Positions 439 through 61,847 of a DNA stretch of 64,000 bases are shown here, piece by piece. The DNA is taken from positions 9,559 through 73,558 of the forward strand of contig DATIPT010000037.1 of the NCBI GenBank assembly GCA_035471625.1, given 5' to 3'. The notes below the pieces were generated by a model. It saw only the letters and a list, made by a program, of their open reading frames with translations. It was not told the origin of the DNA and made no database searches. Origin of the DNA: Anaerolineales bacterium (GTDB lineage: Bacteria; Chloroflexota; Anaerolineae; Anaerolineales; E44-bin32). The position numbers were made by a program, and so were the translations under genes. How positions within the stretch are numbered: position 1 is the first letter of the stretch; each line of letters starts with the position of its first letter.

Positions 439-2616
439 CTAGTGGATCAGGGCCGCTTGATCCTTGATCGCGCCGCGCCCGATCAACGGTTGGTCCGTCT
501 CCGGATCTCGCCCTGGCGGGGGCTCGATCGGGGTGATACTCACGGCGCACACTTTGAAATCGGGAATCTTGGCGCGGGGGTCGAGCCGGTCGCTGGTCAG
601 AACGTTGGCGGCGGCCTCGACGAAATGGAAGGGCACGAAGACCACTCCCTGCGGCGAACGGTCCGTCACCAGCGCCCGCATCTGGACCGCCCCTCGGCGG
701 GAAGCGACTTGAAGCCAGTCCCCGGTCTCCACACCCAACCGTTCGGCGTCGTCCGGGCTTAGTTCGGCGGTTGCCTCCGGCCAGATCTCATCCAGTTTGG
801 AGCGTCGGCTGAGCGTGCCGCCGTGCCAGTGATAGAGCACCCGCCCGGTGGACAGCAGGAACGGATACTCGTCATCCGGTAGCTCGCTCTCTGTCCCGAA
901 CTCGAGCGTCCAGAACTTGCCTCGGCCGCGAGGGAAGGAGTCTTGGAACAGGTATGGCGAGCCCGGGTGTTCGAAGGATGGACAGGGCCAATGGACGCCG
1001 CCTTCTCGCTCGAGTCGAGCGTAGTCGATCCCGGCGAAATCCGGCGTCAGCTGCCGCATCTCCTCCCAGATCTCAGAAGGGTGCGCGTAGCTCCACCCGG
1101 CGCTCTCCTGCTGGCCGAGGCCGGCCTCTAGGCGAAGAGCCAGGTCGCACAGGATTCGCCAATCCGGACGACTGGCGCCGACCGGCGGCAAGGCTTGCCG
1201 GACCCGCTGAATGCGGCGATCGGAATTGGTGAAGGTCCCGTCCTTTTCAGCGAACGAGACCGAAGGGAGCAGGACATCGGCCATCCGGCCTGTGGTATTG
1301 ATGAAAATGTCCTGGCACACCAGCAGGTCGAGCTTCTCGAGCACATGCTGGGCGTGACTCAAGTTGGGTTCGCTCGTGAGCGGATCTTCCCCCATGACGT
1401 ACCAGGCGCGCACCGCCCCGGCCTCGACGGCGTTGACGAGCTCGGTGATCATCAGCCCGGGCTCAGCCGGCAAGCGGTCCCGCCGCCATGCCCGGGCGAA
1501 GCGGGCATTGACCTCGGGATCCTCGACCCGCTGGTAGGCCGTGAAACAATACGGGAGCCCTCCACTGTCGGAGCAGCCTTGGACGTTGTTCTGCCCGCGC
1601 AACGGATTGAGCCCGGTTCCTTCGCGGCCCACGTGGCCGCACATCAGCGCCAGGTTCGTGATCGCCAGCGTGTTGTCCGTTCCGTGTGTGCTTTGGCTGA
1701 TGCCCATCCCCCAGTAGACCGACGCCGCCTTCGCCGTCGCGTACATCCGGGCCGCTGCCCGGATATCGCCCGCCGGAACCCCGGTCTCGGCCTCGGCCCA
1801 CTCGGGTGTGAACGGCTCAAGCGACTCTACGTAGTCCGAGAAACCCTCCGTCCGCTGCTCGATGAAAGCCGGGTTGTAGAGCCTCTCGTCAACGACCACG
1901 TGGGCCATGGCCTGCCACAGGGCGACGTCGGTCCCTGGTCGCTGGCGCAACCAGAGGGTGGCAAAGTCCGTCATCTCGACTTTGCGGGGGTCGATCACGA
2001 TCAGGCGGGCACCGTTCTGGCGGACGGCGCGCTTCAAGAAGTTGGCGATGACGGGATGGGTCTCCGTCGTGTTCGATCCGGTGACAATGAACGTATCGAG
2101 GTTCTCCATCTCGGCGATTGAGTTGCTCATGGCGCTCGAACCGATGGCCAGTTGCAGGCCGGCAACGCTCCCGGCATGGCACAGGCGGGAACAGTGGTCG
2201 ACGTTGTTCGTCCCCACGACAGCGCGCGCCAGCTTCTGGAGCAGGTAGTTGTCCTCGTTGGTCGCCTTGGCACAAGCGAAGAAGGCGACGCTATCCGGAC
2301 CATGCTTTGCCGCAGTGCGTGCCAGACGCGCGGCGACGTACTCGATCGCCTCCTCCCAGCTGACCTCCCGCCACACCGGCGGGGCCGACCGAGGCTCGTC
2401 GAGATTCGCTCGGATCAAGGGCATGCGCAGACGATCCGGATGAGACGTGAAGTCCGTTCCAAACCGGCCCTTGACGCAGAGCATCCCGTAATTGGGTGCG
2501 GAGTCGAAGGGGGCGGTTGTCCTGACGATGGCTTCGTCGCGCACGTGGAGGTCGATCTGGCACCCCACGCCGCAGAACGGACAGGTTGTACGGATCTCTT
2601 GGAGTGTGGGGCTCAT
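439..2616 (-). CDS. fdhA: Formate dehydrogenase alpha-subunit-like molybdopterin oxidoreductase, Cys-type
   Basis: N-terminal 4Fe-4S motif TTCPFCGVGCQ...LCVKGRFG. The active-site stretch VDHCSRLCHAGSV has Cys-His where Sec-His sits in FdhF-type enzymes. The track start (GTG 2640) overlaps a TATAGT -10 box, so ATG 2616 (MSPTLQEIR) is preferred. Confidence 0.8.
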   Translation of the reverse strand: MSPTLQEIRTTCPFCGVGCQIDLHVRDEAIVRTTAPFDSAPNYGMLCVKGRFGTDFTSHPDRLRMPLIRANLDEPRSAPPVWREVSWEEAIEYVAARLARTAAKHGPDSVAFFACAKATNEDNYLLQKLARAVVGTNNVDHCSRLCHAGSVAGLQLAIGSSAMSNSIAEMENLDTFIVTGSNTTETHPVIANFLKRAVRQNGARLIVIDPRKVEMTDFATLWLRQRPGTDVALWQAMAHVVVDERLYNPAFIEQRTEGFSDYVESLEPFTPEWAEAETGVPAGDIRAAARMYATAKAASVYWGMGISQSTHGTDNTLAITNLALMCGHVGREGTGLNPLRGQNNVQGCSDSGGLPYCFTAYQRVEDPEVNARFARAWRRDRLPAEPGLMITELVNAVEAGAVRAWYVMGEDPLTSEPNLSHAQHVLEKLDLLVCQDIFINTTGRMADVLLPSVSFAEKDGTFTNSDRRIQRVRQALPPVGASRPDWRILCDLALRLEAGLGQQESAGWSYAHPSEIWEEMRQLTPDFAGIDYARLEREGGVHWPCPSFEHPGSPYLFQDSFPRGRGKFWTLEFGTESELPDDEYPFLLSTGRVLYHWHGGTLSRRSKLDEIWPEATAELSPDDAERLGVETGDWLQVASRRGAVQMRALVTDRSPQGVVFVPFHFVEAAANVLTSDRLDPRAKIPDFKVCAVSITPIEPPPGRDPETDQPLIGRGAIKDQAALIH

Positions 2617-2688
2617 CCCGTCGCTTCCAATGGGGTCCACTATAGCCCAACCCTCCGAACCTTGACAAGGTCGGTCCAGATAAAGCGA

Positions 2689-2739: not shown

Positions 2740-3753
2740 CTACTCTTGCGGCAGGGACGGCAACGGAAGCAGGAACGGGTTGTCGTTCGGGACAAGCATC
2801 ACCTGGATTCCCGGGCCGAGCTTCTGGACGTAGGTGTACGTGATCAGGTCTGGACTGGTTCGCAGCGCGGCGGCGATCAATTCGAGGGCCTTGGCCTCGG
2901 CATCGGCCTCGATCAGGCGTGCCTCGGCCCGACCTTCGGCGGCGATCACGGCGGCGTCCGCCTGGCCCTGGGCCGTCTGGCGAGCCTGCTCGGCCTCCTG
3001 GCGGCGCTGCTCGACGACGAGGCGCGCCTGCTGTGCCTGCTGCTCGGCGATTTGCTTCTGTTCGACGGAGGCGGCATACTCAGGCGAGAAAGTGATGTTT
3101 CGCAGGACGAAGTCGACCAAGACCAAGCCGTTGTCGGCCAGCTTGTCGGAGAGCTCGAGCAGGATTCGATCCTTGAACGCGTCCCGCTCGGAGGTCACGA
3201 TCTGCTCCACGGCGTACTGGGAAGCGGCATCGCGGATGATGCCCCGCGCCTGGGGCCGAACCACCTCCGTGGAGTATCGACTCTTCCACTGGATGTGAAC
3301 GTCGATGACCTCGTCTGGATCGATGGAAAAGATCACGGAGCCGTCGATGAAGACCTCCTGGCCGTCGGACGTCCGGGCCGTCACCTCGAGGTCATCCGAG
3401 GGGCCGCTCCCCTCGGCGATCGTCATGGTGTAGATCTGCCGCGAAATCGGATAGATGACCACGTTCTCGAAGAAGGGAACGATCCATCGCAGGCCGGGTT
3501 GGAGCACATCCTCCCGGTACCCCTTCGGCGCCAGGGCCGAAATAACCACCCCCCGCTCCTCCGGCTGGACGAAGACCAGGCCGGCGCTGACCACGGTCAG
3601 CAGCGTCGCCAGAACGATCATCCCCAAGACGAGCGCGGCGGCCGACTTGACCGGACGACCGCGCCCCACGCGTAGCACGACCAAGGCGATCACCGCAAGG
3701 CTTCCAAGCCAGGCGAAAGTTGCCAGGGCTCGCATGATCTCAGCAACGTTCAT
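2740..3753 (-). CDS. SPFH/band-7 (prohibitin/HflK-C-like) membrane protein
   Basis: N-terminal TM helix, an SPFH core, and a coiled-coil tail rich in AEQQAQQARL/EAEQARQ. The SD AGGAGGG lies upstream of the ATG, and a TATAAT -10 sits on the minus strand at about 3795-3800. Confidence 0.8.
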   Translation of the reverse strand: MNVAEIMRALATFAWLGSLAVIALVVLRVGRGRPVKSAAALVLGMIVLATLLTVVSAGLVFVQPEERGVVISALAPKGYREDVLQPGLRWIVPFFENVVIYPISRQIYTMTIAEGSGPSDDLEVTARTSDGQEVFIDGSVIFSIDPDEVIDVHIQWKSRYSTEVVRPQARGIIRDAASQYAVEQIVTSERDAFKDRILLELSDKLADNGLVLVDFVLRNITFSPEYAASVEQKQIAEQQAQQARLVVEQRRQEAEQARQTAQGQADAAVIAAEGRAEARLIEADAEAKALELIAAALRTSPDLITYTYVQKLGPGIQVMLVPNDNPFLLPLPSLPQE

Positions 3754-3871
3754 AGCACCCTCCTGTCAGAGTTGAGATCCGTTTCGACCGTAGCATTATA
3801 CCGAGCCGGGGCTTCCGTCCCCGACGACAGGCTGACGGGAGGCCGCTTCCCGTCGGACTCCGCGCGAGGGG

Positions 3872-5998
3872 TCAGTCGCAGAAGAGGTCGAAGACGGTGT
3901 CGTACATCGAGTCGGACAACGCGTAGCCTGGGGGCCTATCGACCAACAACGCCTGGCATGCCCGTCGTCGGTTGACAGAGACGGCGTTGATCTTGGATGC
4001 GACGGCCTCGAGTTCCGATCGCATTTCAAGGAACGCATACGCTCTGGCGAAAGGAATCCACTCCACCCCCACAAGGGGCTTGAGCCCCCTTTCGGACGCC
4101 TCTTGGGCAAGGCCGGGGACCCTCTCGAATTCCCCTCGCTGCAAGGCGAGTTCGGCCTTCTGGAAGAAGTAGCACCAGCCGTGATCGGGCTCCGGGCCGA
4201 AGAGCCACTCCGGGACTGAAGCGCCCGAGGCGTCGGCGTGGATCTGGTCAATACGCGAATGTGGTGCTGCGATCTGAATCACCAGAGGATCATCCGGAAC
4301 GAGAAGCGGCGCCTGTCCGTCAAGGATCCGGACGCAGGCTCCCGGCAGCGTTTGGGCCGCCACGACAAGCTTGCCGAAGTCGGTGGGGACAGAGTGCGTC
4401 CGGTAGGCGCCTCGGCCGTGGTCCTCGCCGGATGTGATCTCATCCAACGACGTATCAGGATACGCAACCGCCGAATAGGAATAGGGAACGGGAACCTCTC
4501 GCGGGATCCCGACCGCGTAGATCAGATTGGCGGGGCCCCAGACGATACTGACGTCATCCGCATAGGAGAAGGACGGGTACTTGACGAAGAATGTCGTACC
4601 AGGCTGAAAGCCCGGCGCCCTCCAAGCCACCTGCCGCCAGAACTGCGCAGTCTCCTCCTGCTCGACCAGGGCCCAAGTCGCGATGGCGCGGTGAGTCAGC
4701 GTCGCCGCCGCCAGGAGTCCCGCCAAGATCAAGAGAGAGACGACTCTCGACCGCAGGAGCTGCAGACTCGCCACGAGCACAACTGACGCGGCGAGGGAGC
4801 CTGGCAGCGCGTAGTGCGAATAGGCGCTGAACGTGATCACGCGGTTGGCAACGACGACGGGCACCGCGGCGGCAAGCGCACCCAAGGCACCGATCACGAG
4901 CGCCTCCATCCACACTGTGCCATCCCGGAGATCGGCCGACGCTTCCCGGGCGGCAGGCTGCACGGATCGCCGGATGCTCCAGAGACGATGCAGCCCGATG
5001 GCCCCCACGACGGCTAGCGCGGCGAGGAAAGCCTTCCCGAGGTCCGCCAGGCGCAAGCCATAGAGTTCCTCACTCAGGGGAACCCCCCAGGCGAAGATGA
5101 CCAGGTTCGTCCAGCTCCGGATCAGGTTGACGCCCCAGCGCAAGGTCGTGAGCACAGGCTCCTGGAGCAACACCCCCAGCTGGACCGCGACGTCTGTTTC
5201 GGATCGTCCACCTTCAAAGACAAGAAGCCGCCACGCCAGAAAGCCGAGCGGGATCAGGGCTGCGGGCAGCCAGGCCTTGAGAGAGGTGGTGAACCTGGAA
5301 CGAGCCTTCTCTTGGACTTCCAACCCTCCTACCACAACAAAGACGCACAGGAACCGGAAGAGCTCAATCCCGATGGCGTACTCGACGAGGGCCAGATACG
5401 TCCATCCGGTAGCGATCGACGCGACCCAGTAGAGGGCCTGGGCGCGAGGCGTCCGTGCCCGGACCGCAGCCAACGTCAGTCCAATCGACAACACCTGCAG
5501 GAACAGGCTGAGCATCATCGGCAGGTACTCGATGCCTGCGACCCACCACAGGTATCCAGGGTACAGGGCGAAGAGCAGCGCTCCCCATAGCGGTGCGCTT
5601 CTCTTGCCGGGCCACAGCTGGGAGAAGACCCAGTAGGCCGCGAAGGCTGAGCCTAGTCGAAGTCCGAAGGAAATCAGGTGATAAGGGAGCGGATTCGGGC
5701 CGAAAGCGGAGAAGAGCGCGGAGAACAGTATTCCCCTCGCCGGTCTGTCAATGCTGAACATCTCCAGGAAGACGGACGGACCGGCAGAAATCCCGTCTAG
5801 CATGTAGTACCAGTCGTCTCTGTAGTACGTCAGAACAGTGGCGGCAGGTAGGAAGACGAAGGCTACGGTAGCTGCGAGGAACAGCAGGCCGGGAAGATCC
5901 TTCGATCGGCGCAGAGAGGCAACGATCCCATGGGATCCCACGTATTGGGCAGGCCTTCTACGCGGACCTTGCGTCGTCGTCATTGAGTTGGCGCCCAC
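3872..5998 (-). CDS. Large polytopic membrane protein, possible GT-C-type glycosyltransferase with a C-terminal soluble domain
   Basis: More than 10 hydrophobic segments over the first ~470 aa and a YYRDDWYY loop near the N-terminus. The start is uncertain: the track start overlaps dtd by 41 nt, and GTG 5941 is an alternative. Function is inferred from topology only. Confidence 0.4.
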
Positions 5999-6431
5999 GC
6001 TCCAGCACGATTGTCACCGGCCCGTCGTTCTCGATCTCGACCAGCATGTGGGCACCAAACTCCCCGAGCTTCGCCGGCACACCCCAGCGCGTCAGGCCCT
6101 CGGCGAAGGCCCGGACAAGCGGCTCGGCCTCGGTCGGGTCGGCGGCGTCGAGGAAGCTGGGCCGACGACCCTTGCGCGTGTCGGCCAGCAGCGTGAATTG
6201 CGACACCACCAGCGCTTCCCCGCCGACCTCAACAAGCGAACGGTTCATCTTCCCATCGGGATCTTCGTAGATACGCAGTTGGGCCGTCTTCTCGGCCAGC
6301 CAGCCGGCCTCATCCGCCGTGTCGCCGCGCGCAACCCCCACAAGGATCACGGCCCCGGGGCCGATGGCCGCCACCGCGCGGTCGCCCACGGAGACACGAC
6401 CGCGGCGGGCCCGCTGAATCACGAGGCGCAT
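5958..6431 (-). CDS. dtd: D-aminoacyl-tRNA deacylase
   Basis: MRLVIQRA...[17 protein letters not shown]...[22 protein letters not shown] are canonical Dtd motifs. Confidence 0.9.
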
Positions 6432-6443
6432 GCCAGGCCGCGT

Positions 6444-7433
6444 CTAGGGAAGCCCTACCGCGTCACGCACTTCGGCCATTGTCGCCTGGGCGATCGCCCG
6501 GGCCCGGCTCGCTCCGTCAGCGAGAACGTCGGCAACGCGTTCCGGATCCCGCGCCAGTTCCTCTCGACGAGCACGGAACGGTTCGAGGTGCTTGTTCAGG
6601 TTGGCGGCAAAGATCTGCTTGCAGTCCACGCAGCCAATCCCCGCCCGGCGACACTCCACGTTGATCCGGGCAACTTCCTCGGCCGGCGTGAAGACCCCGT
6701 GCAAAGAGAAGACGTTGCATACATCCGGATTGCCGGGATCGGACCGGCGCTTCCGGGCAGGATCGGTGACCATCGTCATCACCCGGGCCACGGTCTCCTC
6801 GGGGGTCGCCGCCAGCTCGATGTGGTTGTTCAGGCTCTTGCTCATCTTCTGCTGGCCGTCGGTGCCCAGAACCTTGGGGACCTCGGTCGCTTTCATCTCC
6901 GGCTCGACCAGGACCTTCCGGCCGACACGGTAGTTGAAGGATCGAACGATCTCGCGGGCGAACTCCAGGTGGGGCGCCTGGTCGACCCCTACCGGCACGA
7001 TACCGGCCTTGTAGAGGGCGATGTCGGCCGTCATCAGGACGGGGTAGCCGACCAGTCCATAGTTGACGTTGTGCGGCTGCTGTCGCGCCTTCTCCTTGAA
7101 CGTCGGGAGGTCGGTCAGCTTGCCTAGCGGCGTCACCATGGAGAGGATGGTGTGAAGCTCCGTCACTTCGGGAACGTGCGACTGAACGAAGACGATCGAC
7201 TCGTCCGGGCGAATGCCGGCCGCCAGGAAGTCGAGAACCATCTCGCGCGTGTTCTCCCGCAGCGACACGGTGTCCTCGAGCGTCGTCAGCGCGTGCAGGT
7301 CGACGACGCAGTAGACACACTCGTAGTCGTCCTGCAAGGCGACGTAGTTCTGGATCGCCCCGAGGTAGTTCCCCAGATGCTGGCGTCCGGTGGGACGCGC
7401 CCCGGAGAACACCCGGGTCTTCTGTTTGGCCAC
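6444..7433 (-). CDS. trpS: Tryptophan--tRNA ligase
   Basis: Class I aaRS signature GxxHLGNYLG plus KMSKS, with a TrpRS-length protein. The GTG start directly abuts the stop of the upstream selenoprotein gene, and the SD GGGGAGGG lies inside that gene's 3' end. Confidence 0.92.
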   Translation of the reverse strand: MAKQKTRVFSGARPTGRQHLGNYLGAIQNYVALQDDYECVYCVVDLHALTTLEDTVSLRENTREMVLDFLAAGIRPDESIVFVQSHVPEVTELHTILSMVTPLGKLTDLPTFKEKARQQPHNVNYGLVGYPVLMTADIALYKAGIVPVGVDQAPHLEFAREIVRSFNYRVGRKVLVEPEMKATEVPKVLGTDGQQKMSKSLNNHIELAATPEETVARVMTMVTDPARKRRSDPGNPDVCNVFSLHGVFTPAEEVARINVECRRAGIGCVDCKQIFAANLNKHLEPFRARREELARDPERVADVLADGASRARAIAQATMAEVRDAVGLP

Positions 7434-7682
7434 CTACGAACCCTCCCCGAGGATCTTCCCGACCAAGGACACCACCTCGCCCGGTTCGGCATGCCGTCCC
7501 AGGGCGAGCTTCGAGAACACCGGCTCACCGTCGAGAGCGATCTCGAACCGCCCGCCGTCGGACGGGACGAGCTCGACCGCCTCCAGCCGAGGCTCGAAGG
7601 CCTTCAAGAGATCGGCCGCCAGACCGGAGGCCCTCTCAGTGTAGTGTCAAACGGCGCAGTATTCGATGCGGATCCGGACCAT
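7434..7682 (-). CDS. Rdx/SelW-family selenoprotein (C-x-x-U), in-frame TGA at 7647-7649 read as selenocysteine
   Basis: Absent from the ORF track. The minus-strand reading is MVRIRIEYCAV-U-HYTERASGLAADLLKAFEPRLEAVELVPSDGGRFEIALDGEPVFSKLALGRHAEPGEVVSLVGKILGEGS, 82 codons ending in TAG. It matches the SelW/Rdx layout (IEYCxxU.Y...L...G.FE...G..V.SK). A SECIS-like hairpin begins 10 nt after the TGA. Confidence 0.8.
7608..7637 (-). promoter_or_regulatory. Bacterial SECIS-like hairpin for the SelW-like gene
   Basis: RNA GAGAGGGCCUCCGGUCUGGCGGCCGAUCUC. Pairs are GAGA/UCUC, GGCC/GGCC and CC/GG, with apical loop GGUCU 22-26 nt after the UGA. E. coli fdhF has ..GCAGGUCUGC.. at a similar distance, and both have CAC as the codon after UGA. 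Confidence 0.7.
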
Positions 7683-7886
7683 CGCTTCCGCAGCCTCCTT
7701 GGGCTGGAGCGGAGTATATCGTGGGCCCACGCGAAGGCCAAGATGTGGTCAGGTTCAGCTTCCGGGGAGGCGGTTCCGTTCCTGCGGCGGCTGGGCCATC
7801 CGTTCGCATGATGAGGATAGAATGGGAGCGGGTCGAAGTCGCTTCCGTGCCCGCTCAGACCCCGAGCCCATGGGGGGAGGATCGCA

Positions 7887-8849
7887 ATGGCCAGGAAGGT
7901 CCGTCCGGTCTCGCCGCGGCTATCCGTCGTCGTCCCGATGTTCGACGAGGTCCTCGGCCTCGCCGGCTTCCACACGGCCTTGACGGAAGTGCTTTCCGGC
8001 GAACGGATGGACTACTCCATCATCTATGTGGATGACGGATCGGCCGACGGCACCGGCGAAGCCTTGGATCAGTTGGCGCGCAAAGACCGTCACATCCAGG
8101 TCCTGCACCTCAGCCGGAACTTCGGCCATCAGGCGGCCCTTTCCGCCGGCCTGGACGCCGCCGACGGAGACATCGTCGTCACGATGGATGGCGACGGCCA
8201 GCACCCCCCTTCCCTGATCCCCGAGCTCCTCGCCCTCCACCGGGCCGGATACGACGTCGTCGCCACTCAGAGGATCGATTCCCGGTTGACGCCACGGATG
8301 AAGCGATGGACCGCCGCAGCCTTCTACTGGACGATCAACCGCCTCAGCGATACGCCGATCCTCCCCGGCTCAGCGGACTTCCGGCTGATGTCCCGTGCAG
8401 CCGCCGAGGGCCTGCGCCAGATGCGGGAGTACCATCGCTTCCTGCGGGGGATGGTCTCCTGGATGGGGTTTCGAACAGTGATCGTGCCCTACGAGCCTCC
8501 GCCCCGCCTGGCCGGAAAGACGAAGTACTCGACCCGAAGGATGATCCGGCTGGCGTCCGACGCCATCTTCTCCTTCTCGCTGGCTCCCCTGCGGCTGGGC
8601 CTGGCCGTCGGGATCGGGTTCTTCTTGCTCGCCTGTCTCGAGGCCGCTTATGTCCTCAGTTTCTGGCTCCGAAACCGGGCCGACCTCCTCGTCCCAGGGT
8701 GGAGTTCCCTGATGTTCATGATCCTGATCGTCGGAGCTGTGATGACCACGCTTCTTGGATTCATCGGTATCTACACGGGCTTCATCTTCCAGGAGGTCAA
8801 GCGGCGACCGCTCTATCTGCTGCGAGACCCCGCCCCGGATCCAGAGTAG
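7887..8849 (+). CDS. Family-2 glycosyltransferase, polyprenyl-phosphate sugar transferase type (GtrB/ArnC-like)
   Basis: LSVVVPMFDE...YVDDGSADGT...DGDGQHPP catalytic motifs plus two C-terminal TM helices. The SD GGGGGGAGG lies upstream of the ATG. Confidence 0.85.
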   Translation: MARKVRPVSPRLSVVVPMFDEVLGLAGFHTALTEVLSGERMDYSIIYVDDGSADGTGEALDQLARKDRHIQVLHLSRNFGHQAALSAGLDAADGDIVVTMDGDGQHPPSLIPELLALHRAGYDVVATQRIDSRLTPRMKRWTAAAFYWTINRLSDTPILPGSADFRLMSRAAAEGLRQMREYHRFLRGMVSWMGFRTVIVPYEPPPRLAGKTKYSTRRMIRLASDAIFSFSLAPLRLGLAVGIGFFLLACLEAAYVLSFWLRNRADLLVPGWSSLMFMILIVGAVMTTLLGFIGIYTGFIFQEVKRRPLYLLRDPAPDPE

Positions 8850-13949: not shown

Positions 13950-16445
13950 TCAGGCTCCGCTACCAGGTGTCGACGACACGACGATGTTGACCAGCTTCCC
14001 CGGCACGTACACGACCTGGCGGGGAGTCTTGCCGCCGAGGTGCTTGCGAACGGTTTCGGAGGCCAGGGCCTGTCGTTCGGCTTCCGCCCGGTCGACATCG
14101 GCCGGGACGGAGATCCGGTCACGCACTTTCCCATTCACCTGGACGACGAGGATGATCTCGTCTTCGGCGAGGGCGGCCGGATCGAAGGTCGGCCAGGACT
14201 GCTGATGGATCGAGTACGGCTTCCCAAGCCGGGCCCACAGTTCTTCGGCCACATGCGGGGTCGCTGGAGCCATCAGCAACAGTAGGACTTCGACCGCTTT
14301 CCTGAACTCCGGCGAGCCCGCCAGGCCGGACGACCGCGCTTCGGCCAAGGCATTGGTGAGCTCCATGAGGCCCGAGATGACCGTGTTGAATTCGAAGGCC
14401 TCCAAATCGTTCGTGGCCTGGCGGATGATGCGATGCACGTGGCGCCGGAGGGCGCGTTCCCCGGCCGGATCCGACGCTCGCTCCTGCCCGGCCGTCTCCA
14501 ACGCCAGCGACCACACCCGGTGGAGCCAGCGCACCACCCCCTGGATGTTGTCGTCGCTCCACGGCCCGCCTTCCGCCCAGCGGTAGCCGAACATCAGGTA
14601 GGCCCGGACGACGTCGGCGCCATAGCTGCTCACCTGCTCGTCGGGGTCGATCACGTTGCCGCGCGACTTGCTCATGCGCTGTCCGTCGGGCCCCAGGATC
14701 TGGCCCTGGTTGCGCAGCTGGAGCATCGGCTCGTTGCCCTCCGTGATTCCCATGTCGCGCAGGGCCTTGTGGAAGAACCGCGTGTAGATCAGATGCATCG
14801 TGGCGTGTTCGATCCCGCCGGTGTAGGTGTCGACCGGCATCCAGTAGTCGTACTCCTCCGGGTCGAACGGCGCTTCGGCGTTGCGCGGACTCAGGTAGCG
14901 CAAGTGGTACCACGACGAACACATGAAGGTGTCCATCGTGTCGGTATCGCGTTCGGCCGGCTTGTTGCATATCGGGCAGGTGGTGTGGCGCCACGTCGGA
15001 TGTAGCTTGAGCGGCGACTCACCGGTCGGACGCCACTCGACGTCGTCGGGCAGCAGGACGGGCAGCTGATCCTCGGGCACCGGAACCTGCCCATGCTCTG
15101 GGCAGTAGACGATCGGGATCGGAGCCCCCCAGTAGCGCTGTCGCGAGATCAACCAGTCACGCAGGCGATAGCCCACGGCGGCCTCCCCGACGCCGCGTTG
15201 TTCCAGGTACTCCGTGGTGCGGGCGACGGCGCGGTCGGCCGTCGTCCCGCTCAACGGACCGGAGTTGACCATCGCACCATACGACGGGACGGCCTCCCTC
15301 ATGGCGGCGCCGTCCAATGCCTCGGTACCCTCAGGCCGGATCACCGGACGGACCTCCAGACCGAACCTGCGGGCAAACTCGAAGTCGCGCTGGTCGTGAG
15401 CCGGCACAGCCATGATCGCGCCGGTGCCGTAGCTAAGCAGCACGTAGTCGGCAATCCAGACCGGGATCCGCTCTTCGTTGACCGGGTTGACGGCATAGCC
15501 GCCGGTGAAGACCCCGGTCTTCTCCTTGTCGGCGGCTTCGCGCTGGATATCCGACTGGCGCAGCGTCTGCTGCACGTAGGCCTCCACGGCGGCCGCCTGT
15601 TCCGGGGTGGTCAGCGACTGGACCAGCGGATGCTCGGGCGCCAGCACCATGAAGGTCGCGCCCCACAGCGTGTCGGGGCGGGTGGTGAAGACTTCGATCG
15701 GATCCCCCGCCTCCGTGCGGAAGCGGACATTGGCGCCCTGACTGCGTCCGATCCAATTTGTCTGCAGCACCCGCACCGATTCCGGCCAGTCGATATCATC
15801 GAAGCGGAGAAGTTCGTCGGCGTATTGGGTGATGCGGAAGAACCACTGCTCCAGGTCTTTCTTGATCACCGGAGTCTTGCATCGCTCGCAGACACGCTCC
15901 TCGCCGATCACCTGCTCGCGCGCCAGGGTGGTGTTGTCCTTGGGGCACCAGTCCACCGGCGCCATCTTCTTGTAGGCCAGGCCGTTTTCGAACATCTTGA
16001 GGAAGAACCACTGGGTCCAGCGGTAGTAGGCCGGGTCGGCCGAAATCGCCTCGCGTTCCCAGTCCCACATGGCTCCCATCGTACGCAGCTGGCGGCGCAT
16101 GTTCTCGACGTTGCGATAGGTCCAGTCCTTGGGATGGATACCGCGCTCAATCGCGGCGTTCTCCGCCGGCAGGCCAAAAGCATCGAAGCCGATGGGGAAG
16201 GTGACGTTGAACCCGCGCATGCGGAGATAGCGGGCGCGGGCGTCCGACGGCCCCATGGCGAACCAGTGGCCGATGTGCAGGTCGCCGGAGGTGTAGGGGA
16301 GCATCGTCAGGAAGTAGAACTTGGGTCTGGCCTGGTCGACGCGGGCGCTGTAGAGTTGGTCCGCCTCCCAGCGGGCCTGCCAGCGCGGTTCGATCTCGGC
16401 CGGGTCGTAGCGGTCGATCCTCGCCCTATCCTTTGCCTTCGCCAT
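13950..16445 (-). CDS. leuS: Leucine--tRNA ligase
   Basis: YFLTMLPYTSGDLHIGH (HIGH) and QRMSKSRGN (KMSKS), with a LeuRS-specific CP1 domain and C-terminus. ATG 16445 is preceded by the SD GGAGG. The track's 49-codon extension runs into the T-box leader. Confidence 0.93.
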   Translation of the reverse strand: MAKAKDRARIDRYDPAEIEPRWQARWEADQLYSARVDQARPKFYFLTMLPYTSGDLHIGHWFAMGPSDARARYLRMRGFNVTFPIGFDAFGLPAENAAIERGIHPKDWTYRNVENMRRQLRTMGAMWDWEREAISADPAYYRWTQWFFLKMFENGLAYKKMAPVDWCPKDNTTLAREQVIGEERVCERCKTPVIKKDLEQWFFRITQYADELLRFDDIDWPESVRVLQTNWIGRSQGANVRFRTEAGDPIEVFTTRPDTLWGATFMVLAPEHPLVQSLTTPEQAAAVEAYVQQTLRQSDIQREAADKEKTGVFTGGYAVNPVNEERIPVWIADYVLLSYGTGAIMAVPAHDQRDFEFARRFGLEVRPVIRPEGTEALDGAAMREAVPSYGAMVNSGPLSGTTADRAVARTTEYLEQRGVGEAAVGYRLRDWLISRQRYWGAPIPIVYCPEHGQVPVPEDQLPVLLPDDVEWRPTGESPLKLHPTWRHTTCPICNKPAERDTDTMDTFMCSSWYHLRYLSPRNAEAPFDPEEYDYWMPVDTYTGGIEHATMHLIYTRFFHKALRDMGITEGNEPMLQLRNQGQILGPDGQRMSKSRGNVIDPDEQVSSYGADVVRAYLMFGYRWAEGGPWSDDNIQGVVRWLHRVWSLALETAGQERASDPAGERALRRHVHRIIRQATNDLEAFEFNTVISGLMELTNALAEARSSGLAGSPEFRKAVEVLLLLMAPATPHVAEELWARLGKPYSIHQQSWPTFDPAALAEDEIILVVQVNGKVRDRISVPADVDRAEAERQALASETVRKHLGGKTPRQVVYVPGKLVNIVVSSTPGSGA

Positions 16446-16479
16446 TTCGCCTCCTACGGCGGATCGTCGTCCGCCGGCC

Positions 16480-16792
16480 AACACAAAGCCCCTCCGCCAT
16501 ACAGGGACGGAGGGGCCTCCGTGGTACCACCCTGCTTTCCCCTGCACCGGACCGGTTCTCAATACAACTCGATCCGCGCGCCGGGCTCGCATCCGCGCTA
16601 CCGGGCGGACCCGCCGCCGGCTAGTTCTCGTCTCACCGGCGGAGCCTGTCCTGCTTCAGGGCTGGCAGAACGGCAGGCGAGTTCGGCCTTCGACGGATGC
16701 GCAGGTCAGATCTTGCCCGTCTGGTGCTCGGCAGGCACCTTGCCGGGCTTGCACGGTCCCCGGCTCGCTGGCGATCGGCCTACTGCTCCTGC
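16480..16792 (-). promoter_or_regulatory. T-box riboswitch leader (Leu, specifier CUG) controlling leuS
   Basis: The minus strand shows a Stem I base GCAGG...CCUGC with AGCAGUA on the 5' side. The 3' side reads AAGAU-CUG-A (specifier CUG at 16707-16709), matching the glyQS layout AAGAA-GGC-A. The T-box core AGGGUGGUACCACGG lies at 16519-16533. The terminator stem GCCCCUCCG/CGGAGGGGC (16488-16516) is followed by UUUGUGUU. Confidence 0.85.
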
Positions 16793-16879: not shown

Positions 16880-16955
16880 TGGTGGACCCAGTGGGATTCG
16901 AACCCACGACCTTCTCAATGCCATTGAGACGCGCTCCCAACTGCGCTATGGGCCC
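16880..16955 (-). tRNA. tRNA-Ala (anticodon GGC), CCA encoded
   Basis: The cloverleaf folds by hand: acceptor GGGCCCA/UGGGUCC with the G3:U70 Ala identity pair, anticodon loop AUGGCAU and T-loop GGGUUCGAAUCCC. Confidence 0.9.
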
Positions 16956-17082: not shown

Positions 17083-18570
17083 TCAGGACCTCCGACGCAT
17101 CGACGCCAGCCAACGTTCGATCTCCTTGGCGGCGATGTCTCGGCCCCCCAGCCCGAAGGCCAGCGCAGCGGCGACCGCGATCGCCCCGAGGACGATCCCG
17201 AACGCCAGGTTGACGATGTCCTCGGCGATACCCAGCTGGCGGAGCGCCAGCGAGCCGCCGAAGACGATGATCGCGACCCGGGCCGCGGGCGCCAGGACGC
17301 CGGCCTGCGAACCGCCGGTGCTCCGGATCACCCGGTCGGCCAGCGAAGCCAGATACAGCGCGATCCCGAAGATGATCAGGGCGACCAGGACCTGTCCGGC
17401 CAGTCCGAGGAACTCGGCTGCCAGAGTCGCCAGGATGGTGAACCCGACCATTTCCGCGGCCTGAACGACCGCCAGGATCATGACCGCGACGGTCGTCAGG
17501 TACCCGACGATCTGGGACGGCGTTTGCGTGACCCCGCTGATCGTCGGTTCCAGTCCGATCCAGCTCAAGACTTTGTCGAAGCCGATCCCCGTCAGGGCAC
17601 TGGTGACAAAGTTGCCGACCACCCGCGCCACCGCATAGGCAATCCCCAGGAGCACGAACGCGCCGAAGATCGCCGGGATGGCGGTGAAGACGACGGTCAG
17701 CATCTCGGAGATCGGCGCCGTGATGGCCTCGATCGCCAGGGCGTTCAAGGCTGCTGTGACCACCGGGATCAAAGCCAGGACGTAGACGATCGTCCCGATG
17801 ACGGTCGACAGCTTCACGCCGCCCAGACCGGTCGAAAGACCGATGCTGTCGCCGAACCGATCGACCCCCGTCCCGGCCAACAGATTGACCAGGATCTGGC
17901 GGACGATCCGGGCGGCGATCCAGCCGAAGAGCAGGATCAGGGCCGCCGCGAGCAGGTTCGGCAGGTAGCCCAGGATCTGGTTGACCATCCCCTCGACGGG
18001 TCCAAGCAGACCCTGCAGGTTCAGGGCGCCGAGGATGGCCGGCAAGAAGAGGACGAACACCAGCCAGTAGGCGACATTGCCCAAGGTGGTCCCCAGCGGG
18101 GCTCGCGCCGTATCGAGTTCGGCCTGTGAAGTCAAACGTTCTTCCAGACGGGTCGCCGAGAGGAGGCGCGTGATGATGAACCGCACGGCACTGGCGATGA
18201 TCCAAGCGATCACCAGCAGGACCACGGCTCCGAGAAGGACTGGCAGGAACCCCAGAATCTGGTCGAGCATGGTGTTGATCGGGGAGGCGGCTTCGGCGAG
18301 GTTGAGCGTCTGCAGGAACGCGACCAGAACAAAGAGCATGATGAGCCAGAAGACCGCGGTGCCGATCCACGCCGTCATGCGCAAGGGGGGACCATCCCCG
18401 AGTGCGCCGTAGAGGCGCTCGTCCAGACGTGCCCGTCGCAAGACCGCGCGGACGATCGCCGAAATGATCCATGCGATCAGCCAGCCGCCGATCAGGATCC
18501 CGATGGCCGCCAGGGCGGTCAGAACCGATCCGCCGAGGCTCGCCACCAACTCTTGAAGGACTTGATCCAT
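17083..18570 (-). CDS. Membrane protein with conserved TM-helix repeats (mechanosensitive-channel-related family)
   Basis: Repeated segments of the type ..L..I..A..IL..GW..A.....V.. occur throughout. ATG 18570 is preceded by the SD GGGAGGAAGAAGC. The alternative-frame 562-aa ORF was rejected. Confidence 0.6.
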   Translation of the reverse strand: MDQVLQELVASLGGSVLTALAAIGILIGGWLIAWIISAIVRAVLRRARLDERLYGALGDGPPLRMTAWIGTAVFWLIMLFVLVAFLQTLNLAEAASPINTMLDQILGFLPVLLGAVVLLVIAWIIASAVRFIITRLLSATRLEERLTSQAELDTARAPLGTTLGNVAYWLVFVLFLPAILGALNLQGLLGPVEGMVNQILGYLPNLLAAALILLFGWIAARIVRQILVNLLAGTGVDRFGDSIGLSTGLGGVKLSTVIGTIVYVLALIPVVTAALNALAIEAITAPISEMLTVVFTAIPAIFGAFVLLGIAYAVARVVGNFVTSALTGIGFDKVLSWIGLEPTISGVTQTPSQIVGYLTTVAVMILAVVQAAEMVGFTILATLAAEFLGLAGQVLVALIIFGIALYLASLADRVIRSTGGSQAGVLAPAARVAIIVFGGSLALRQLGIAEDIVNLAFGIVLGAIAVAAALAFGLGGRDIAAKEIERWLASMRRRS

Positions 18571-18897
18571 GCTTCTTCCTCCCTTGGATGAACCCCCCGC
18601 CAGGCGTTCGGTCGGCCTGACCAGGCCTGTCCATCCCTTGCGAGGCGCGGTCCTCCGCAACCTCTCAGGTACGCTGCTTCGTCAGCCGACGGAGCGGCGC
18701 CAGACGCGGCTCCTCCGAAGGTTAAGAACCCCCTTGGCCGGGTGCCGCTTCGCGGAGATGTGCGCTCTTGCTCGGGAACTTGGCAGTCTCGTCGGACCCG
18801 CTGGACCAGACGGCCTTCTGGCCGCTCTGGCCAGAACACCGGGGGCCCCGGTCGGACCCCTATCACGCCGGCGCGGCCGCGTTTCGGCTGTCGCAGG

Positions 18898-18970
18898 TGG
18901 ACCTGGCGGGATTCGAACCCGCGACCTCTTCAGTGCGATTGAAGCGCGCTCCCAACTGCGCTACAGGCCC
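18898..18970 (-). tRNA. tRNA-Ala (anticodon CGC), CCA not fully encoded
   Basis: Acceptor GGGCCUG/CAGGUCC with G3:U70, anticodon loop AUCGCAC and T-loop GGGUUCGAAUCCC. The D-arm is identical to the other tRNA-Ala. Confidence 0.9.
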
Positions 18971-22990: not shown

Positions 22991-25069
22991 TCACTCCTCG
23001 TCCTCTTCCTTGCCGGCGTCCTTCTTGCGGGCAGCGATGATCCCTTCCGCTACATGCGCCGGGACGACCTCGTAGTTGGAGAACGACATCGTGAAGACGC
23101 CCCGCCCGCCCGTTACCGAACGGAGCTCGCTCGTGTAGCGCAGCATCTCGGCATGCGGCACCTTCGCCGTAACGATGCTCCGGCCGCGCTCGGTCTCCAT
23201 CCCCTGAACCCGCGCCCGCCGCGTGTTCAGGTCGCCGAGGACATCGCCCATGTGCTCTTCGGGGACCGTCACCCGGACGTCCATGATCGGCTCGAGCAGG
23301 ACCGGGCCGGCGTCGCGAAAGGCCGCCTTGAAGGCCTCCCGTCCGGCGGTCTCAAAAGCGACCGCCTTGGAGTCGACCGGGTGCTCCTTGCCATCGGTGA
23401 CCGCCACCCTCACGTTCTCGACCGGGTAGCCGGCGATGACGCCGCCCTTGAGGACGCCGCGTACGCCTTTTTCGATGGCCGGCATGAAGCTGTTGGAGAT
23501 CGCGCCGCCGAAGACCTCGTTCACGAACTCGAAGTCCTCTTCGGGGTTCGGCTCGATCCGCATGTGGACTTCGGCGAACTGCCCGGCGCCGCCGGTCTGC
23601 TTCTTGTGGCGGTGGGCGGCCTCACCGCTTCGGGTGATGGTTTCCCGATACGAGACGCGCGGCGTCTCGGTCTGCAACCCGACCTGGAACTTGTTCTCGG
23701 CCTTGCGGATGGCGACATCGATATGCTGATCGCCCATCCCCTGGAGGATCGTCTGGTTGGTGCTGGCCTCCTGGTGCCAGGAGAGGGTTGGGTCTTCTTC
23801 GCACAGGCGCGTCAGCGAGGCCCCCATCTTGGTCGAGTCGGCCTGGGTCTTGGGGAGCACGGCCACGGCGTACAAGGCGTTCGGGTACTCGGGCACGGGG
23901 ACGAGGATCCGCTGCGCCTTATCGCCCAGCGTGTCTCCGGTCCCGGCGGCCGCCAGCTTGGCCACGGTTCCGATGTCGCCCGCATGCAGCTTCTGGACCG
24001 GAATCTGTTCCTTGCCGCGCATCACATGCAAGTTGCCGAGCCGCTCTTCGGCTCCCTTGGTGTGGTTCCACAAGCGGCTATCCGAGGCGAGGCTCCCAGA
24101 AAAGACGCGCAGGTAGGTCAGCTTCCCCACGAAGGGGTCGGCCGTCGTCTTCCAAACGTACACGGCCAACGGTCCGGCGTCGGACCCGGTAAGTTCCACT
24201 TCCCCCGAGGGTCCCTCGCCACGGACCGGGGGCGCCTCGCCCGGTGACGGAAACCATTCGATGATGGAGTCCAGCAGCGGTAGCGCACCGATCCCGGCGG
24301 TCCCGGCGGCGACGAAGACCGGCACCACACGGCCCGACCGGACGGCCTGACGAAAGCCCTTGGCGATCTCTTCGGCCGAGAGCTCCTCCCCGCCAAGGTA
24401 CTTCTCGAGCAGGGAGTCATCGCCCTCGGCGGCCGCTTCGACCACGACGATCCGGGCGTCTTCGGCCTCCGAGCGCAGGTCCTCCGGGACCTCGCCAATC
24501 TCCTTGCCGTCGCCGAGGCGGACCTTCATCGTCAGCAGGTCGAGGGCGCCCTTGAAGCCGGCCTTCTCGCCCACCGGGAGCTGGACCGGAACGAATGCCG
24601 TCTCGCTGGAAAGGCTGCGGACGGACTCCAAGGCCCTGGCGAAGCTGGCGTTGTCGCGATCCATCTTGCTGATGACGACGAAGCGAGGCAAAGAGAGCTG
24701 GTCGCAGTACCCCCAGACCACCTCCGTCCCAACTTCGACCCCGGAGACGGCGTCGATCAAGACGACCGCGCCTTCCACGACACGCAGGGCGGAGATCACC
24801 TCGCCGACAAAGTCGGTGTAGCCGGGCGTGTCGAGCAGGTTGATCTTGGTGTCGGTGTGCTCGAGCGGGACGACAGCGGTAGAGAGGGAGAGCTTGCGGC
24901 GGACTTCCTCTTCCTCGAAGTCGGAGGCGGTGTTTCCCTCCTCGACCTTTCCCATGCGGGTCGTCACTCCGGTGGCAAAGAGCGCAGCCTCGACCAGCGA
25001 TGTCTTGCCCGCGCCGCCATGCGAAACCAGCGCGACATTCCGGAGATGATCGGTCGCGTATTCCTTCAT
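22991..25069 (-). CDS. fusA: Elongation factor G family GTPase (stand-alone paralogue, not in an rps/str context)
   Basis: G1 SHGGAGKTS, G3 DTPGYTDF, and EF-G domains II-V (e.g. GDTLGD, HPVDSK). Confidence 0.88.
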   Translation of the reverse strand: MKEYATDHLRNVALVSHGGAGKTSLVEAALFATGVTTRMGKVEEGNTASDFEEEEVRRKLSLSTAVVPLEHTDTKINLLDTPGYTDFVGEVISALRVVEGAVVLIDAVSGVEVGTEVVWGYCDQLSLPRFVVISKMDRDNASFARALESVRSLSSETAFVPVQLPVGEKAGFKGALDLLTMKVRLGDGKEIGEVPEDLRSEAEDARIVVVEAAAEGDDSLLEKYLGGEELSAEEIAKGFRQAVRSGRVVPVFVAAGTAGIGALPLLDSIIEWFPSPGEAPPVRGEGPSGEVELTGSDAGPLAVYVWKTTADPFVGKLTYLRVFSGSLASDSRLWNHTKGAEERLGNLHVMRGKEQIPVQKLHAGDIGTVAKLAAAGTGDTLGDKAQRILVPVPEYPNALYAVAVLPKTQADSTKMGASLTRLCEEDPTLSWHQEASTNQTILQGMGDQHIDVAIRKAENKFQVGLQTETPRVSYRETITRSGEAAHRHKKQTGGAGQFAEVHMRIEPNPEEDFEFVNEVFGGAISNSFMPAIEKGVRGVLKGGVIAGYPVENVRVAVTDGKEHPVDSKAVAFETAGREAFKAAFRDAGPVLLEPIMDVRVTVPEEHMGDVLGDLNTRRARVQGMETERGRSIVTAKVPHAEMLRYTSELRSVTGGRGVFTMSFSNYEVVPAHVAEGIIAARKKDAGKEEDEE

Positions 25070-25203: not shown

Positions 25204-25689
25204 ATGGCGTCCGTGGTCAACCAGTACTCCTTCCTCCTCGCCGGCATTGGCGCGCTGGCTCTGCTGGCGGCCATCCTGTTCCGCGATGGCATCAAGTCCG
25301 GCGACTTCCTGGCCCTGGGCGCCCTGACCCTCGGTCTGGCGCTTGCCTATGGCCTGCTCCGCCCCGGCCAGGGGACGGCCGATACGACCGACGCCGTCCG
25401 GGCCGAAATCGGCAAGGGCACCCCAGTCCTGCTTGAATTCCAGAGCCCCTTCTGACTCGGCTGCATGGCGGTCAGACCCGTCGTGGACGGAGTCGAGCTT
25501 GAGTACGAGGGCAAGATGAAGGTCATCCGACTCAACGTCCAACATCCCGCCACGCGCCCGCTGGCGGAGGCCTACCGATTCCAGTACACGCCGACGTTTG
25601 TCCTGCTCGGCCCCGACGGGACCGAGCTATGGCGCTCGGTCGGCGCGCTCGATCCCGAGGCCGTTCGAGACAGCCTGGGGTCCCCTTGA
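25204..25689 (+). CDS. Membrane-anchored thioredoxin-fold selenoprotein (U-x-x-C), in-frame TGA at 25453-25455 read as selenocysteine
   Basis: Track ORFs 25204..25455 and 25465..25689 are in the same frame. The joined product has 2 TM helices, then PVLLEFQSPF-U-LGC-MAVRPVVDGVELEYEGKMKVIRLNVQ...YTPTFVLLGPDG. That is a thioredoxin layout with the TGA at the first redox Cys. Confidence 0.75.
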
Positions 25690-55379: not shown

Positions 55380-55477
55380 GCGGTTTCCTTTTGGCGTACG
55401 TCCCGCTCTCCCCGCCGGCAAGGGGCCTGGGCGAGCACCTTGACCCGCCCGCCGCAATCAGGATAGACTAGAGACAC

Positions 55478-55575
55478 CAACGCAAACGGGGAGCCCGGCG
55501 CGCCGGGCTGAGAGGAGGGGTTCGCGGCCCTCGACCCGAGGAACCTGATCCGGATAATGCCGGCGTAGGGATGGC
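55478..55575 (+). promoter_or_regulatory. TPP (THI-box) riboswitch aptamer
   Basis: GGGGAGC..CTGAGAGG..ACCCGAGGAACCTGATCCGGATAATGCCGGCGTAGGGA contains the conserved CUGAGA and ACCUGAUCCGGAUAAUGCCGGCG..GGGA cores. Confidence 0.9.
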
Positions 55576-55590
55576 ACCAAGCGGCATCCG

Positions 55591-55620: not shown

Positions 55621-56271
55621 GTGTCGGCAAAGACCGCCGTCATCCTGGCCAACGGCGAATTGGGGGATTTCCAATCCCTCTCGCCCCGCCTCGCAGCCGC
55701 CCAGCCCGATCTTGTCATCGCTGCCGACGGCGGGGCCCGGTATGCCCCCGGGCTCGGATTGCACCTCGATGTCGTCATCGGCGACCTCGACTCGGCCTCC
55801 GGCGATCCTGGGGTCGAGGTCGTCCGTTTTCCGCCGGACAAGGACGAGACCGACCTCGAACTTGCACTGTTGCACGCCCTGTCGCGTGGCGCCGAGAGAA
55901 TCGTCCTGCTGGGTGCGATCGGAGGCCGCCTCGATATGACGCTGGCGAGCACGTTGCTGCTGCTCCATCCGGAAATCACCCACCAGCAAGTCGCCATCTG
56001 GCACGGGTCTGAAACGGCCTATGTGCTTCGTCCCCCCGGGGGGACGATCAGCGGGGCCCCTGGCGACCGCGTCAGTCTGATCCCGCTGGCCGGTGAGGTC
56101 AGCGGCGTATCCACCGAAGGGCTCCAGTTCCGGTTGCGCGGCGGGACGCTCGCGCCCGGCCCGGGGCGCGGCATCAGCAATCGGATGACCGCCACATCCG
56201 CAGAGGTCCGCTTGGAGGCCGGAGTCCTCCTGATGGTCCATTCTCCGGGACCCCCGAAGGACCCGGCGTGA
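55621..56271 (+). CDS. thiN: Thiamine diphosphokinase
   Basis: VILANGE..., VIGDLDS, PPDKDETDLELAL and LLGAIGGRLD are TPK motifs. GTG 55621 sits 8 nt after GGGAG, and the track start GTG 55612 lies inside the hairpin. Confidence 0.85.
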   Translation: MSAKTAVILANGELGDFQSLSPRLAAAQPDLVIAADGGARYAPGLGLHLDVVIGDLDSASGDPGVEVVRFPPDKDETDLELALLHALSRGAERIVLLGAIGGRLDMTLASTLLLLHPEITHQQVAIWHGSETAYVLRPPGGTISGAPGDRVSLIPLAGEVSGVSTEGLQFRLRGGTLAPGPGRGISNRMTATSAEVRLEAGVLLMVHSPGPPKDPA

Positions 56272-59709: not shown

Positions 59710-60054
59710 TCAGGCCAGCACGATGGGCGCGACGAGGCCATAGGTGTCGATCGACGAGATGATCCCCATCGGCAGGATGATGAAGATCAGGCAGGCAATG
59801 CAGATTCCGATCACGCCCAAGCCGATGCCGATCCACCCCATGATCACTCCGGCGAAGGCCATCCCGTCGCCGCTCTGCGTGCCCCCGCTCGCAGCGATCT
59901 CCCGTCGGGCGATGTTGCCCGTAATCACGGCCGCGATGCTCCCGATGAAGGGAAACATCGTCAGGCCGAGGATCCCGGCTATCAGACTGACCCAGGCCAT
60001 CGAATGGGTCGGTACCGGGGTCGTACTTGGGGTCGAAGACTGAGTCATCGTCAT
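59710..60054 (-). CDS. DUF4190-like small membrane protein
   Basis: Two TM helices with AWVSLIAGILG...GSIAAVITGNIARREI...GVIMGWIGIGL. Confidence 0.6.
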   Translation of the reverse strand: MTMTQSSTPSTTPVPTHSMAWVSLIAGILGLTMFPFIGSIAAVITGNIARREIAASGGTQSGDGMAFAGVIMGWIGIGLGVIGICIACLIFIILPMGIISSIDTYGLVAPIVLA

Positions 60055-61561: not shown

Positions 61562-61634
61562 TCCTCGGTAGCTCAATCGGCAGAGCGGGCGGCTGTTAAC
61601 CGCTAGGTTCCAGGTTCGAGTCCTGGCCGAGGAG
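61562..61634 (+). tRNA. tRNA-Asn (anticodon GTT), CCA not encoded
   Basis: Acceptor UCCUCGG/CCGAGGA, anticodon loop CUGUUAA and T-arm CCAGGUUCGAGUCCUGG. Confidence 0.9.
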
Positions 61635-61847
61635 CCTCTCCTCTTCATCCCGTCCCTCCCATTCTCCGATCGCCCTCGACCACCGTGCCCGGTTGCACGA
61701 CCTCTCCTTGCGGCGGTGCCCACGGTCATGCTTTCCGCTCTCATCGATCTCTTATAGGCAGGTTACACGGGCGTTACATCGGGCCGCTACCCTCCGGCCA
61801 TACCACGTCGGAGACGCGGACTCTCCGACTCGTTGCGGAGGTTGAAC

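Follow-up and report, generated by a model that had tools for sequence, protein, structure and literature searches.

Small bacterial selenoproteins of the selenoprotein W (SelW) type, which carry a CxxU motif (U, selenocysteine, Sec), were described in 2005 and outnumbered every other selenoprotein family in data from the Sargasso Sea (PMC1088965). The selenocysteine insertion sequence (SECIS) of these genes is a stem-loop right after the UGA, with a small apical loop that contains G (PMC1088965). SelW-like selenoproteins have been catalogued across several phyla, and their Cys forms are rare (PMC1794560). Here we analysed a stretch of 64,000 nucleotides from an Anaerolineales bacterium (Chloroflexota; assembly GCA_035471625.1, contig DATIPT010000037.1), which is called the window below and whose first letter is position 1. 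Positions 7434-7682 of its minus strand very probably hold a functional gene for a small SelW-like selenoprotein of the Rdx family, referred to as selW. Like the described bacterial members, the predicted protein has about 80 residues, a CxxU motif after strand 1, few Cys homologues and a presumed redox function. It differs from them in its host, in the position of the gene directly upstream of trpS and dtd, and in the occurrence of two SECIS registers within its clade. Because the family was already described in 2005, the gene is a further member of a known family.

Two more distant groups were also compared. The solved Rdx proteins 2fa8, 3dex, 2obk, 2p0g, 2oka and 2ojl have the same fold and the same active-site position, but they are CxxC proteins of about 100 residues, with 27-38% identity, and have neither Sec nor SECIS. 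Mammalian selenoprotein W (2npb, template modelling (TM) score 0.71) and its relatives Rdx12, SelT and SelH have the thioredoxin-like Rdx fold and the CxxU motif in common with it. In eukaryotes, by contrast, the SECIS lies in the 3′ untranslated region and works with SBP2 and eEFSec, and there is no operon context.

The SelW-like frame and its in-frame UGA

The minus-strand frame from 7682 to 7434 was translated as MVRIRIEYCAV*HYTERASGLAADLLKAFEPRLEAVELVPSDGGRFEIALDGEPVFSKLALGRHAEPGEVVSLVGKILGEGS*, that is 82 codons followed by TAG, and the internal stop is a TGA at codon 12 (7647-7649, minus strand). The gene structure given in the original prediction, an 82-codon minus-strand gene with TGA at codon 12, was thus borne out by translation. 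With the TGA read as Sec, a reading that rests on conservation and on Cys homologues, the active-site motif would be C9-A-V-U12. The GC fractions at the three codon positions of the frame (0.70/0.43/0.84) resembled those of trpS and were close to those of the real genes of the window (about 0.68/0.43/0.84). Seven independent metagenome contigs from different samples are identical to the window at the TGA, in their full read-through translation and over the 48 nt that follow the TGA. In the mechanical list of open reading frames (ORFs), selW is covered only by a 57-residue tail started at TTG (7434-7607) and by two ORFs in another frame or on the other strand. These two, 7152-7811 (plus) and 7604-7975 (minus), had been called artefacts; we came to the same view because neither has a Pfam match and their codon-position GC is non-genic (0.82/0.44/0.70 and 0.56/0.66/0.73, respectively). 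The only Rfam match on 7400-7750 at E <= 10 was a weak one to the dauA non-coding RNA motif within selW (7473-7540, minus strand; 23.2 bits, gathering score 45, E = 0.13), which probably arose by chance in GC-rich coding sequence.

The family of the protein was assessed with hidden Markov models (HMMs), after U had been replaced by C. The read-through translation, which had been predicted to belong to the Rdx/SelW family, gave a clear match to Pfam Rdx PF10262 (70.5 bits against a cutoff of 22.6, E = 1.4e-19) over residues 3-74 of 82, spanning the TGA. It also exceeded the cutoff of TIGR02174 CXXU_selWTH (55.1 against 34.2 bits). Sequence matches to the bacterial Rdx structures 2fa8, 3dex, 2ojl, 2p0g, 2obk and 2oka had E values of 3e-9 to 2e-6, and in two alignments the C-A-V-U of selW fell on the C-T-Q-C of 2fa8 and 3dex (Y-C-A-V-U-H versus Y-C-T-Q-C-N). 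The natural Cys homologue P0002, 63% identical to the window protein, was modelled in its stead with AlphaFold2. The model had a mean predicted local distance difference test score of 88.5 and a beta-alpha-beta-beta-beta-alpha order, in which strand 1 comprised residues 2-9 and helix 1 came after the motif. A Foldseek search with this model placed SelW-related structures first (TM 0.84-0.88), with mouse SelW at TM 0.71, followed by thioredoxins. The HMM score, the alignment of CxxU on CxxC and the fold of the Cys homologue all support membership in the Rdx/SelW family, and JGI names close relatives 'selT/selW/selH-like putative selenoprotein'.

The conservation of the UGA was examined at DNA level in one genomic locus (L001, from a Chloroflexia metagenome-assembled genome) and in the 80 metagenomic loci that ranked best among 573 confirmed relatives. 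TGA occupied the CxxU column in 82 of 82 sequences (81 loci and the window), and coding was conserved on either side of it. The protein search gave 154 relatives, most of which had 57-62 residues and covered about 70% of the query, as expected of gene callers that restart after the TGA. Full-length Cys forms do exist: P0002 (C-A-P-C) and P0097 (C-A-V-C) both have TGC in their DNA, so that Cys stands at the Sec column, in line with the comparison proposed earlier. One JGI protein, P0003 (locus L087), reads 'YCAVWHY', but its DNA has TGA and the record does not match a translation with code 11. Another, P0005, is also translated with Trp and is probably the same case. Reassignment of TGA in this genome was considered and rejected. 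Of the 34 window genes with Pfam support, 17 end in TGA, as do 27 of 82 selW-like genes; as TGA is a common stop in both sets, the code is taken to be standard.

The hairpin downstream of the UGA

The segment GAGAGGGCCUCCGGUCUGGCGGCCGAUCUC (7608-7637, minus strand) folds in isolation with a GGUCU loop at -14.1 kcal/mol, as the original prediction had drawn it. Only its upper stem of 7 bp is conserved. This conserved SECIS core (7614-7632, minus strand) begins 14 nt after the UGA and has its GGUCU loop at 7621-7625, while the lower GAGA/UCUC stem is specific to the window and was not conserved in the other loci. The related loci were compared as 73 distinct codon-aligned sequences, in which the U of UGA was numbered 0. 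Complete hairpins were found in 72 of the 73, in one of two registers, so that both the frame and the hairpin recur in relatives of the window gene. Register A, the window type, has pairs 17-35 to 23-29 after a 14-nt spacer, with a loop of GGUCU, AGUUU or AGUCU. Register B has pairs 14-30 to 19-25 after an 11-nt spacer, with a loop of CGUGA, CGUGG or CGUUG. It is used by about half of the selW family, and eight sequences can form both registers. A G-U dinucleotide lies in the small apical loop of both, and on the unselected 73-sequence alignment each register exceeded the shuffle and slide controls.

Covariation in register A was measured on 41 sequences picked by loop sequence alone, with 500 shuffles as control. 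Pairing was observed in 90.6% of cells, compared with 79.4% after shuffling and 15-54% after sliding. Compensatory changes were seen in five of the seven pairs (for example C-G/U-A 24:13 and G-C/A-U 26:13), and doubly changed cells numbered 47 versus 15.6 expected, a level reached by none of the 500 shuffles. RNAalifold predicted the same helix from these 41 sequences. When all 73 sequences were given, it returned no structure, because the two registers coexist; splitting by loop sequence resolved this. The base changes in the stem alter amino acids in coupled pairs (Val...Thr/Ala, Ile...Met, Ala...Ala), which has the look of an RNA constraint acting on coding sequence. The choice of synonymous codons was tested by recoding the 73 sequences with codons drawn from the family's own usage. 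Natural hairpins had a mean of -11.7 kcal/mol and recodings -8.0 kcal/mol, and 56 of 73 natural hairpins were among the most stable 20% of their own recodings. For the window, -14.1 kcal/mol compared with a recoding mean of -8.6 kcal/mol, and 2% of recodings were as stable.

A natural control was provided by locus L082, which carries tandem Rdx paralogues: a Cys form (C-A-P-C, TGC; 1152-1400 of that locus), a Sec form (C-F-T-U, TGA; about 1446-1694) and then dtd. The TGA copy has seven of seven stem pairs and a GGUCU loop, whereas the TGC copy has four of seven pairs and a GCUUU loop. The hairpin is therefore kept in the Sec copy only. The Cys form P0097 likewise lacks the hairpin, with three of seven pairs in register A and two of six in register B.

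The hairpin was then compared with the SECIS of E. coli fdhF, to which it had been likened. The fdhF sequence used, GTC TGA CAC ... GCA GGT CTG CAC, matched annotated fdhF in 5420 E. coli records, with at least 99% identity in 5412 of them. Its pairing positions follow the published mini-SECIS pairing; folding of the fdhF SECIS gave an apical helix and a GGUC loop that agree with it. Both elements lie inside the coding sequence (CDS) after the UGA, have CAC as the next codon, form a GGUC loop from GGU-CUG (Gly-Leu) and have similar predicted stability. They differ in spacing, since the upper stem of fdhF starts 11 nt after the UGA with the loop GU at nt 23-24, compared with 14 nt and nt 26-27 in the window. 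The likeness claimed by the original prediction thus held for the UGA-CAC context and the GGUC loop, but the distance to the loop, said to be nearly identical, is 3 nt (one codon) longer in the window. Moreover, fdhF has a GGUC tetraloop and a bulged U, while the window has a GGUCU pentaloop, no bulged U and an internal U-C mismatch, and the two proteins are unrelated. The 11-nt spacer of fdhF is found in register B of the selW family. Covariation, codon choice, loss in Cys forms and the likeness to fdhF together support the hairpin as a candidate SECIS.

If selW follows the mechanism established in bacteria, its codon 12 (UGA) would be decoded as Sec. The mRNA hairpin 14 nt downstream would be bound by SelB-GTP-Sec-tRNA(Sec) as the ribosome nears the UGA, and Sec would be delivered to the A site, for which release factor 2 competes. 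The product would be an 82-residue thioredoxin-like protein with Cys9-x-x-Sec12 where strand 1 ends and helix 1 starts. Such a SelW-like protein would most likely cycle between the selenol/thiol and selenenylsulfide states as a thiol-dependent redox protein, encoded by the first gene of a selW-trpS-dtd cluster.

Sec decoding and other readings of the UGA

Sec decoding has been reported for Chloroflexi, together with unusual 8/4 tRNA-Sec species (PMC1794560, PMC5322559, PMC5389517). When the window was scanned for TGA-interrupted coding regions, a second candidate selenoprotein was obtained, a putative UxxC thioredoxin of 161 residues at 25204-25689 (plus strand) with TGA at 25453-25455. Its product would be a membrane-anchored, thioredoxin-like protein with hydrophobic helices near the N terminus. 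Its thioredoxin domain carries F-U-L-G-C in place of the Y-C-x-x-C of homologues, and the Pfam Thioredoxin match (33.2 bits, cutoff 23.5) runs across the TGA. About 55 homologues are full-length CxxC proteins, and at least seven others end exactly at ...LLEFQSPY. All four of these fragments that were checked in DNA stop at a TGA, beyond which the thioredoxin domain follows in frame. Their synteny matches that of the window, with elongation factor G (EF-G) upstream and a methyltransferase downstream. About 24-38 nt after the UGA there is a small conserved hairpin, CCC(G/A)UC-GUG-GA(C/U)GG. With two independent genes in 64 kb that show a Sec/Cys pair, this Anaerolineales organism very likely decodes Sec. 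Another in-frame TGA, at 60041 (plus strand), was rejected, as its translation is of low complexity and looks like antisense noise.

Several observations weigh against a functional selenoprotein gene at selW. Within the 64-kb window, no tRNA-Sec was found by ARAGORN and no SelA, SelB or SelD by Pfam among 39 likely genes. The protein did not reach the cutoff of the NCBIfam equivalog NF041051 SelTWH_Campy (75.9 against 88 bits); judged by its scores, it is a member of the family outside this Campylobacter equivalog. No Rfam family matched the hairpin when the whole window was searched at the gathering threshold and 7400-7750 at E <= 10; such an absence is weak evidence, because bacterial SECIS elements are short and diverse. 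The dinucleotide-shuffle z-score of the window hairpin was just -0.9, but this measure does not discriminate, because the experimentally proven fdhF SECIS scores only -0.67. The window stem also has a U-C mismatch at pair 21-31, which is G-C or A-U in 39 of 41 relatives. Two window genes were considered for a role in Sec use and rejected. The EF-G homologue at 22991-25069 (minus strand) has the full EF-G domain set and is not SelB. The molybdopterin oxidoreductase at 439-2640 (minus strand) is one uninterrupted ORF of 733 residues and was dismissed as a Sec-containing formate dehydrogenase. Its domains are Fe4S4, Molybdopterin and Molydop_binding; if it is formate dehydrogenase-like, it is not the Sec form.

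If the TGA were a genuine stop, the locus would encode an 11-residue leader peptide and a separate truncated Rdx fragment of 57 residues from the TTG at 7607. Gene callers in Logan, ENA and JGI do predict such fragments (P0001 and most protein-search matches), and the missing Sec machinery in the window fits with a stop as well. However, the 11 upstream codons are conserved and bear strand 1 and the catalytic Cys. The fragment would be left without the active site and without one core strand of the fold. Full-length Cys forms exist, and the hairpin, which covaries, vanishes where TGA becomes TGC. Termination at this codon is therefore highly improbable. We also give very little credence to read-through without Sec, in which a near-cognate tRNA-Trp or tRNA-Cys, or a local change of the code, would produce a CxxW or CxxC protein. 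A hairpin that is conserved, covaries and has its GU loop at the distance of a SECIS would be superfluous for near-cognate read-through, and TGA is a normal stop in half of the genes. JGI gives W at the codon in P0003 and P0005, and selW adjoins trpS, but the TGC homologues have Cys, the residue usually seen in place of Sec rather than of Trp. The same Sec/Cys pattern, moreover, recurs in a second window gene at a thioredoxin active site.

The mismatch in the stem raises another question, whether the window copy was once a functional selenoprotein gene and is now decaying as a pseudogene. Its core hairpin has -9.1 kcal/mol, compared with -14.9 kcal/mol in the closest relative, L002. Nevertheless, the extra lower stem brings the stability back to -14.1 kcal/mol, a value that 98% of synonymous recodings do not reach, and the fdhF SECIS, which is proven, has imperfections of its own and does not exceed the window hairpin in stability. 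The reading frame is unbroken and its codon-position GC is that of a gene, and the identity of the TGA, of the read-through translation and of the following 48 nt on seven other contigs also speaks against decay. We regard a pseudogene as very unlikely. A functional selenoprotein gene, with Sec at codon 12, is the reading that we prefer.

The selW-trpS-dtd cluster and annotation of the clade

Downstream of selW, on the same strand, lie trpS (tryptophan--tRNA ligase; 6444-7433, minus; Pfam tRNA-synt_1b, 210 bits; HSR46943.1) and dtd (D-aminoacyl-tRNA deacylase; 5958-6431, minus; Pfam Tyr_Deacylase, 167.8 bits; HSR46942.1). The TAG of selW (7434-7436) abuts the GTG of trpS (7431-7433), and the Shine-Dalgarno (SD) sequence of trpS, GGGGAGGG (7441-7448), lies within the last selW codons. 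An SD-like AAGGAGG, read directly from the sequence, is placed 11 nt before the selW ATG (7694-7700, minus strand). A promoter-like site, TTGGCC (-35) and TATACT (-10, 7713-7718) with a 17-nt spacer, was located at 7713-7741 (minus strand) by a consensus scan, with 9 of 12 matches. The SD, the TATACT, the TAG/GTG junction and the trpS SD inside selW were all found at the positions that had been claimed for them. In the promoter scan of 3600-8000 (4.4 kb, both strands), two sites were obtained where 0.3 were expected, and the selW site was the sole one on the minus strand. selW probably has its own promoter and SD, the promoter function being deduced from these motifs.

Seventy-one other loci extend 300 nt or more beyond selW, and in 66 of them trpS comes next on the same strand, with a gap of no more than 30 nt in 40 and often with overlapping stop and start codons. 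In 40 loci dtd follows trpS or selW directly; it stands directly after selW where trpS is missing (L046, L052, L076 and L082). No terminator-like site was detected by scanning between selW, trpS and dtd. From this synteny and the lack of a terminator between the genes, the conserved unit is selW-trpS-dtd, and the three genes may well be co-transcribed. The transcription unit originally proposed also included a membrane protein. Beyond dtd there is an ORF of 708 residues with eight hydrophobic segments and no Pfam match, and upstream of selW a family-2 glycosyltransferase gene (HSR46945.1) is divergently transcribed. Neither the ORF nor the glycosyltransferase was matched in the sequence of the other loci, most of which end before the position of the 708-residue ORF. 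Thus the selW-trpS-dtd part of the proposal stood, while the membrane-protein part did not find a counterpart in any other locus.

Our literature search found no report of SelW linked with a tryptophanyl-tRNA synthetase (TrpRS) operon, nor of two SECIS registers. It is unlikely, but worth stating, that the linkage reflects a functional module beyond mere synteny. The SelW-like protein could possibly protect the enzymes of tRNA charging and proofreading, or serve as their redox partner. Possibly, too, the Sec UGA at codon 12 could act as a selenium-dependent gate on the translation or transcription of trpS-dtd. TrpRS charges tRNA-Trp, the main near-cognate competitor at UGA, and if the gate existed, UGA recoding would be tied to the supply of Trp-tRNA.

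Elsewhere in the window, ARAGORN found tRNA-Ala genes with GGC and CGC anticodons (16880-16955 and 18896-18970, both minus) and a tRNA-Asn gene (61562-61636). The two tRNA-Ala genes lie on either side of a mechanosensitive-channel gene (17083-18660), a short way downstream of leuS (13950-16592). A thiamine pyrophosphate riboswitch (RF00059, 64.6 bits; 55477-55587, plus) lies upstream of genes for an ATP-binding cassette permease (56268-57104) and an NMT1/THI5-like protein (57145-58125), and a thiamine-precursor uptake operon is a plausible interpretation of this arrangement.

With regard to annotation, selW had been described as unannotated. This is true of the ORF list, which does not contain the full gene, but GenBank appears to annotate a CDS here. 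Since TrpS is HSR46943.1 and the glycosyltransferase is HSR46945.1, the accession numbers leave exactly one CDS, HSR46944.1, between them. An exact look-up among the NCBI proteins of the searched collection found neither the 57-residue fragment, nor versions with X or C, nor the track ORFs. The selW-trpS-dtd cluster, the two SECIS registers in one clade and the second candidate selenoprotein gene in the window appear modestly new.

The practical value of these results lies in annotation. In public databases the gene of this clade is routinely cut to a fragment of 57-62 residues or mistranslated with Trp, and the second candidate selenoprotein of the window is likewise split into two fragments. 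The 73 codon-aligned SECIS sequences illustrate cleanly how the structure of an RNA can constrain the protein that it encodes. Although the selW-trpS-dtd cluster would be no surprise to a specialist, it is a small, testable clue to the function of SelW, and correct calls of such genes matter for estimates of selenium use in Chloroflexota.

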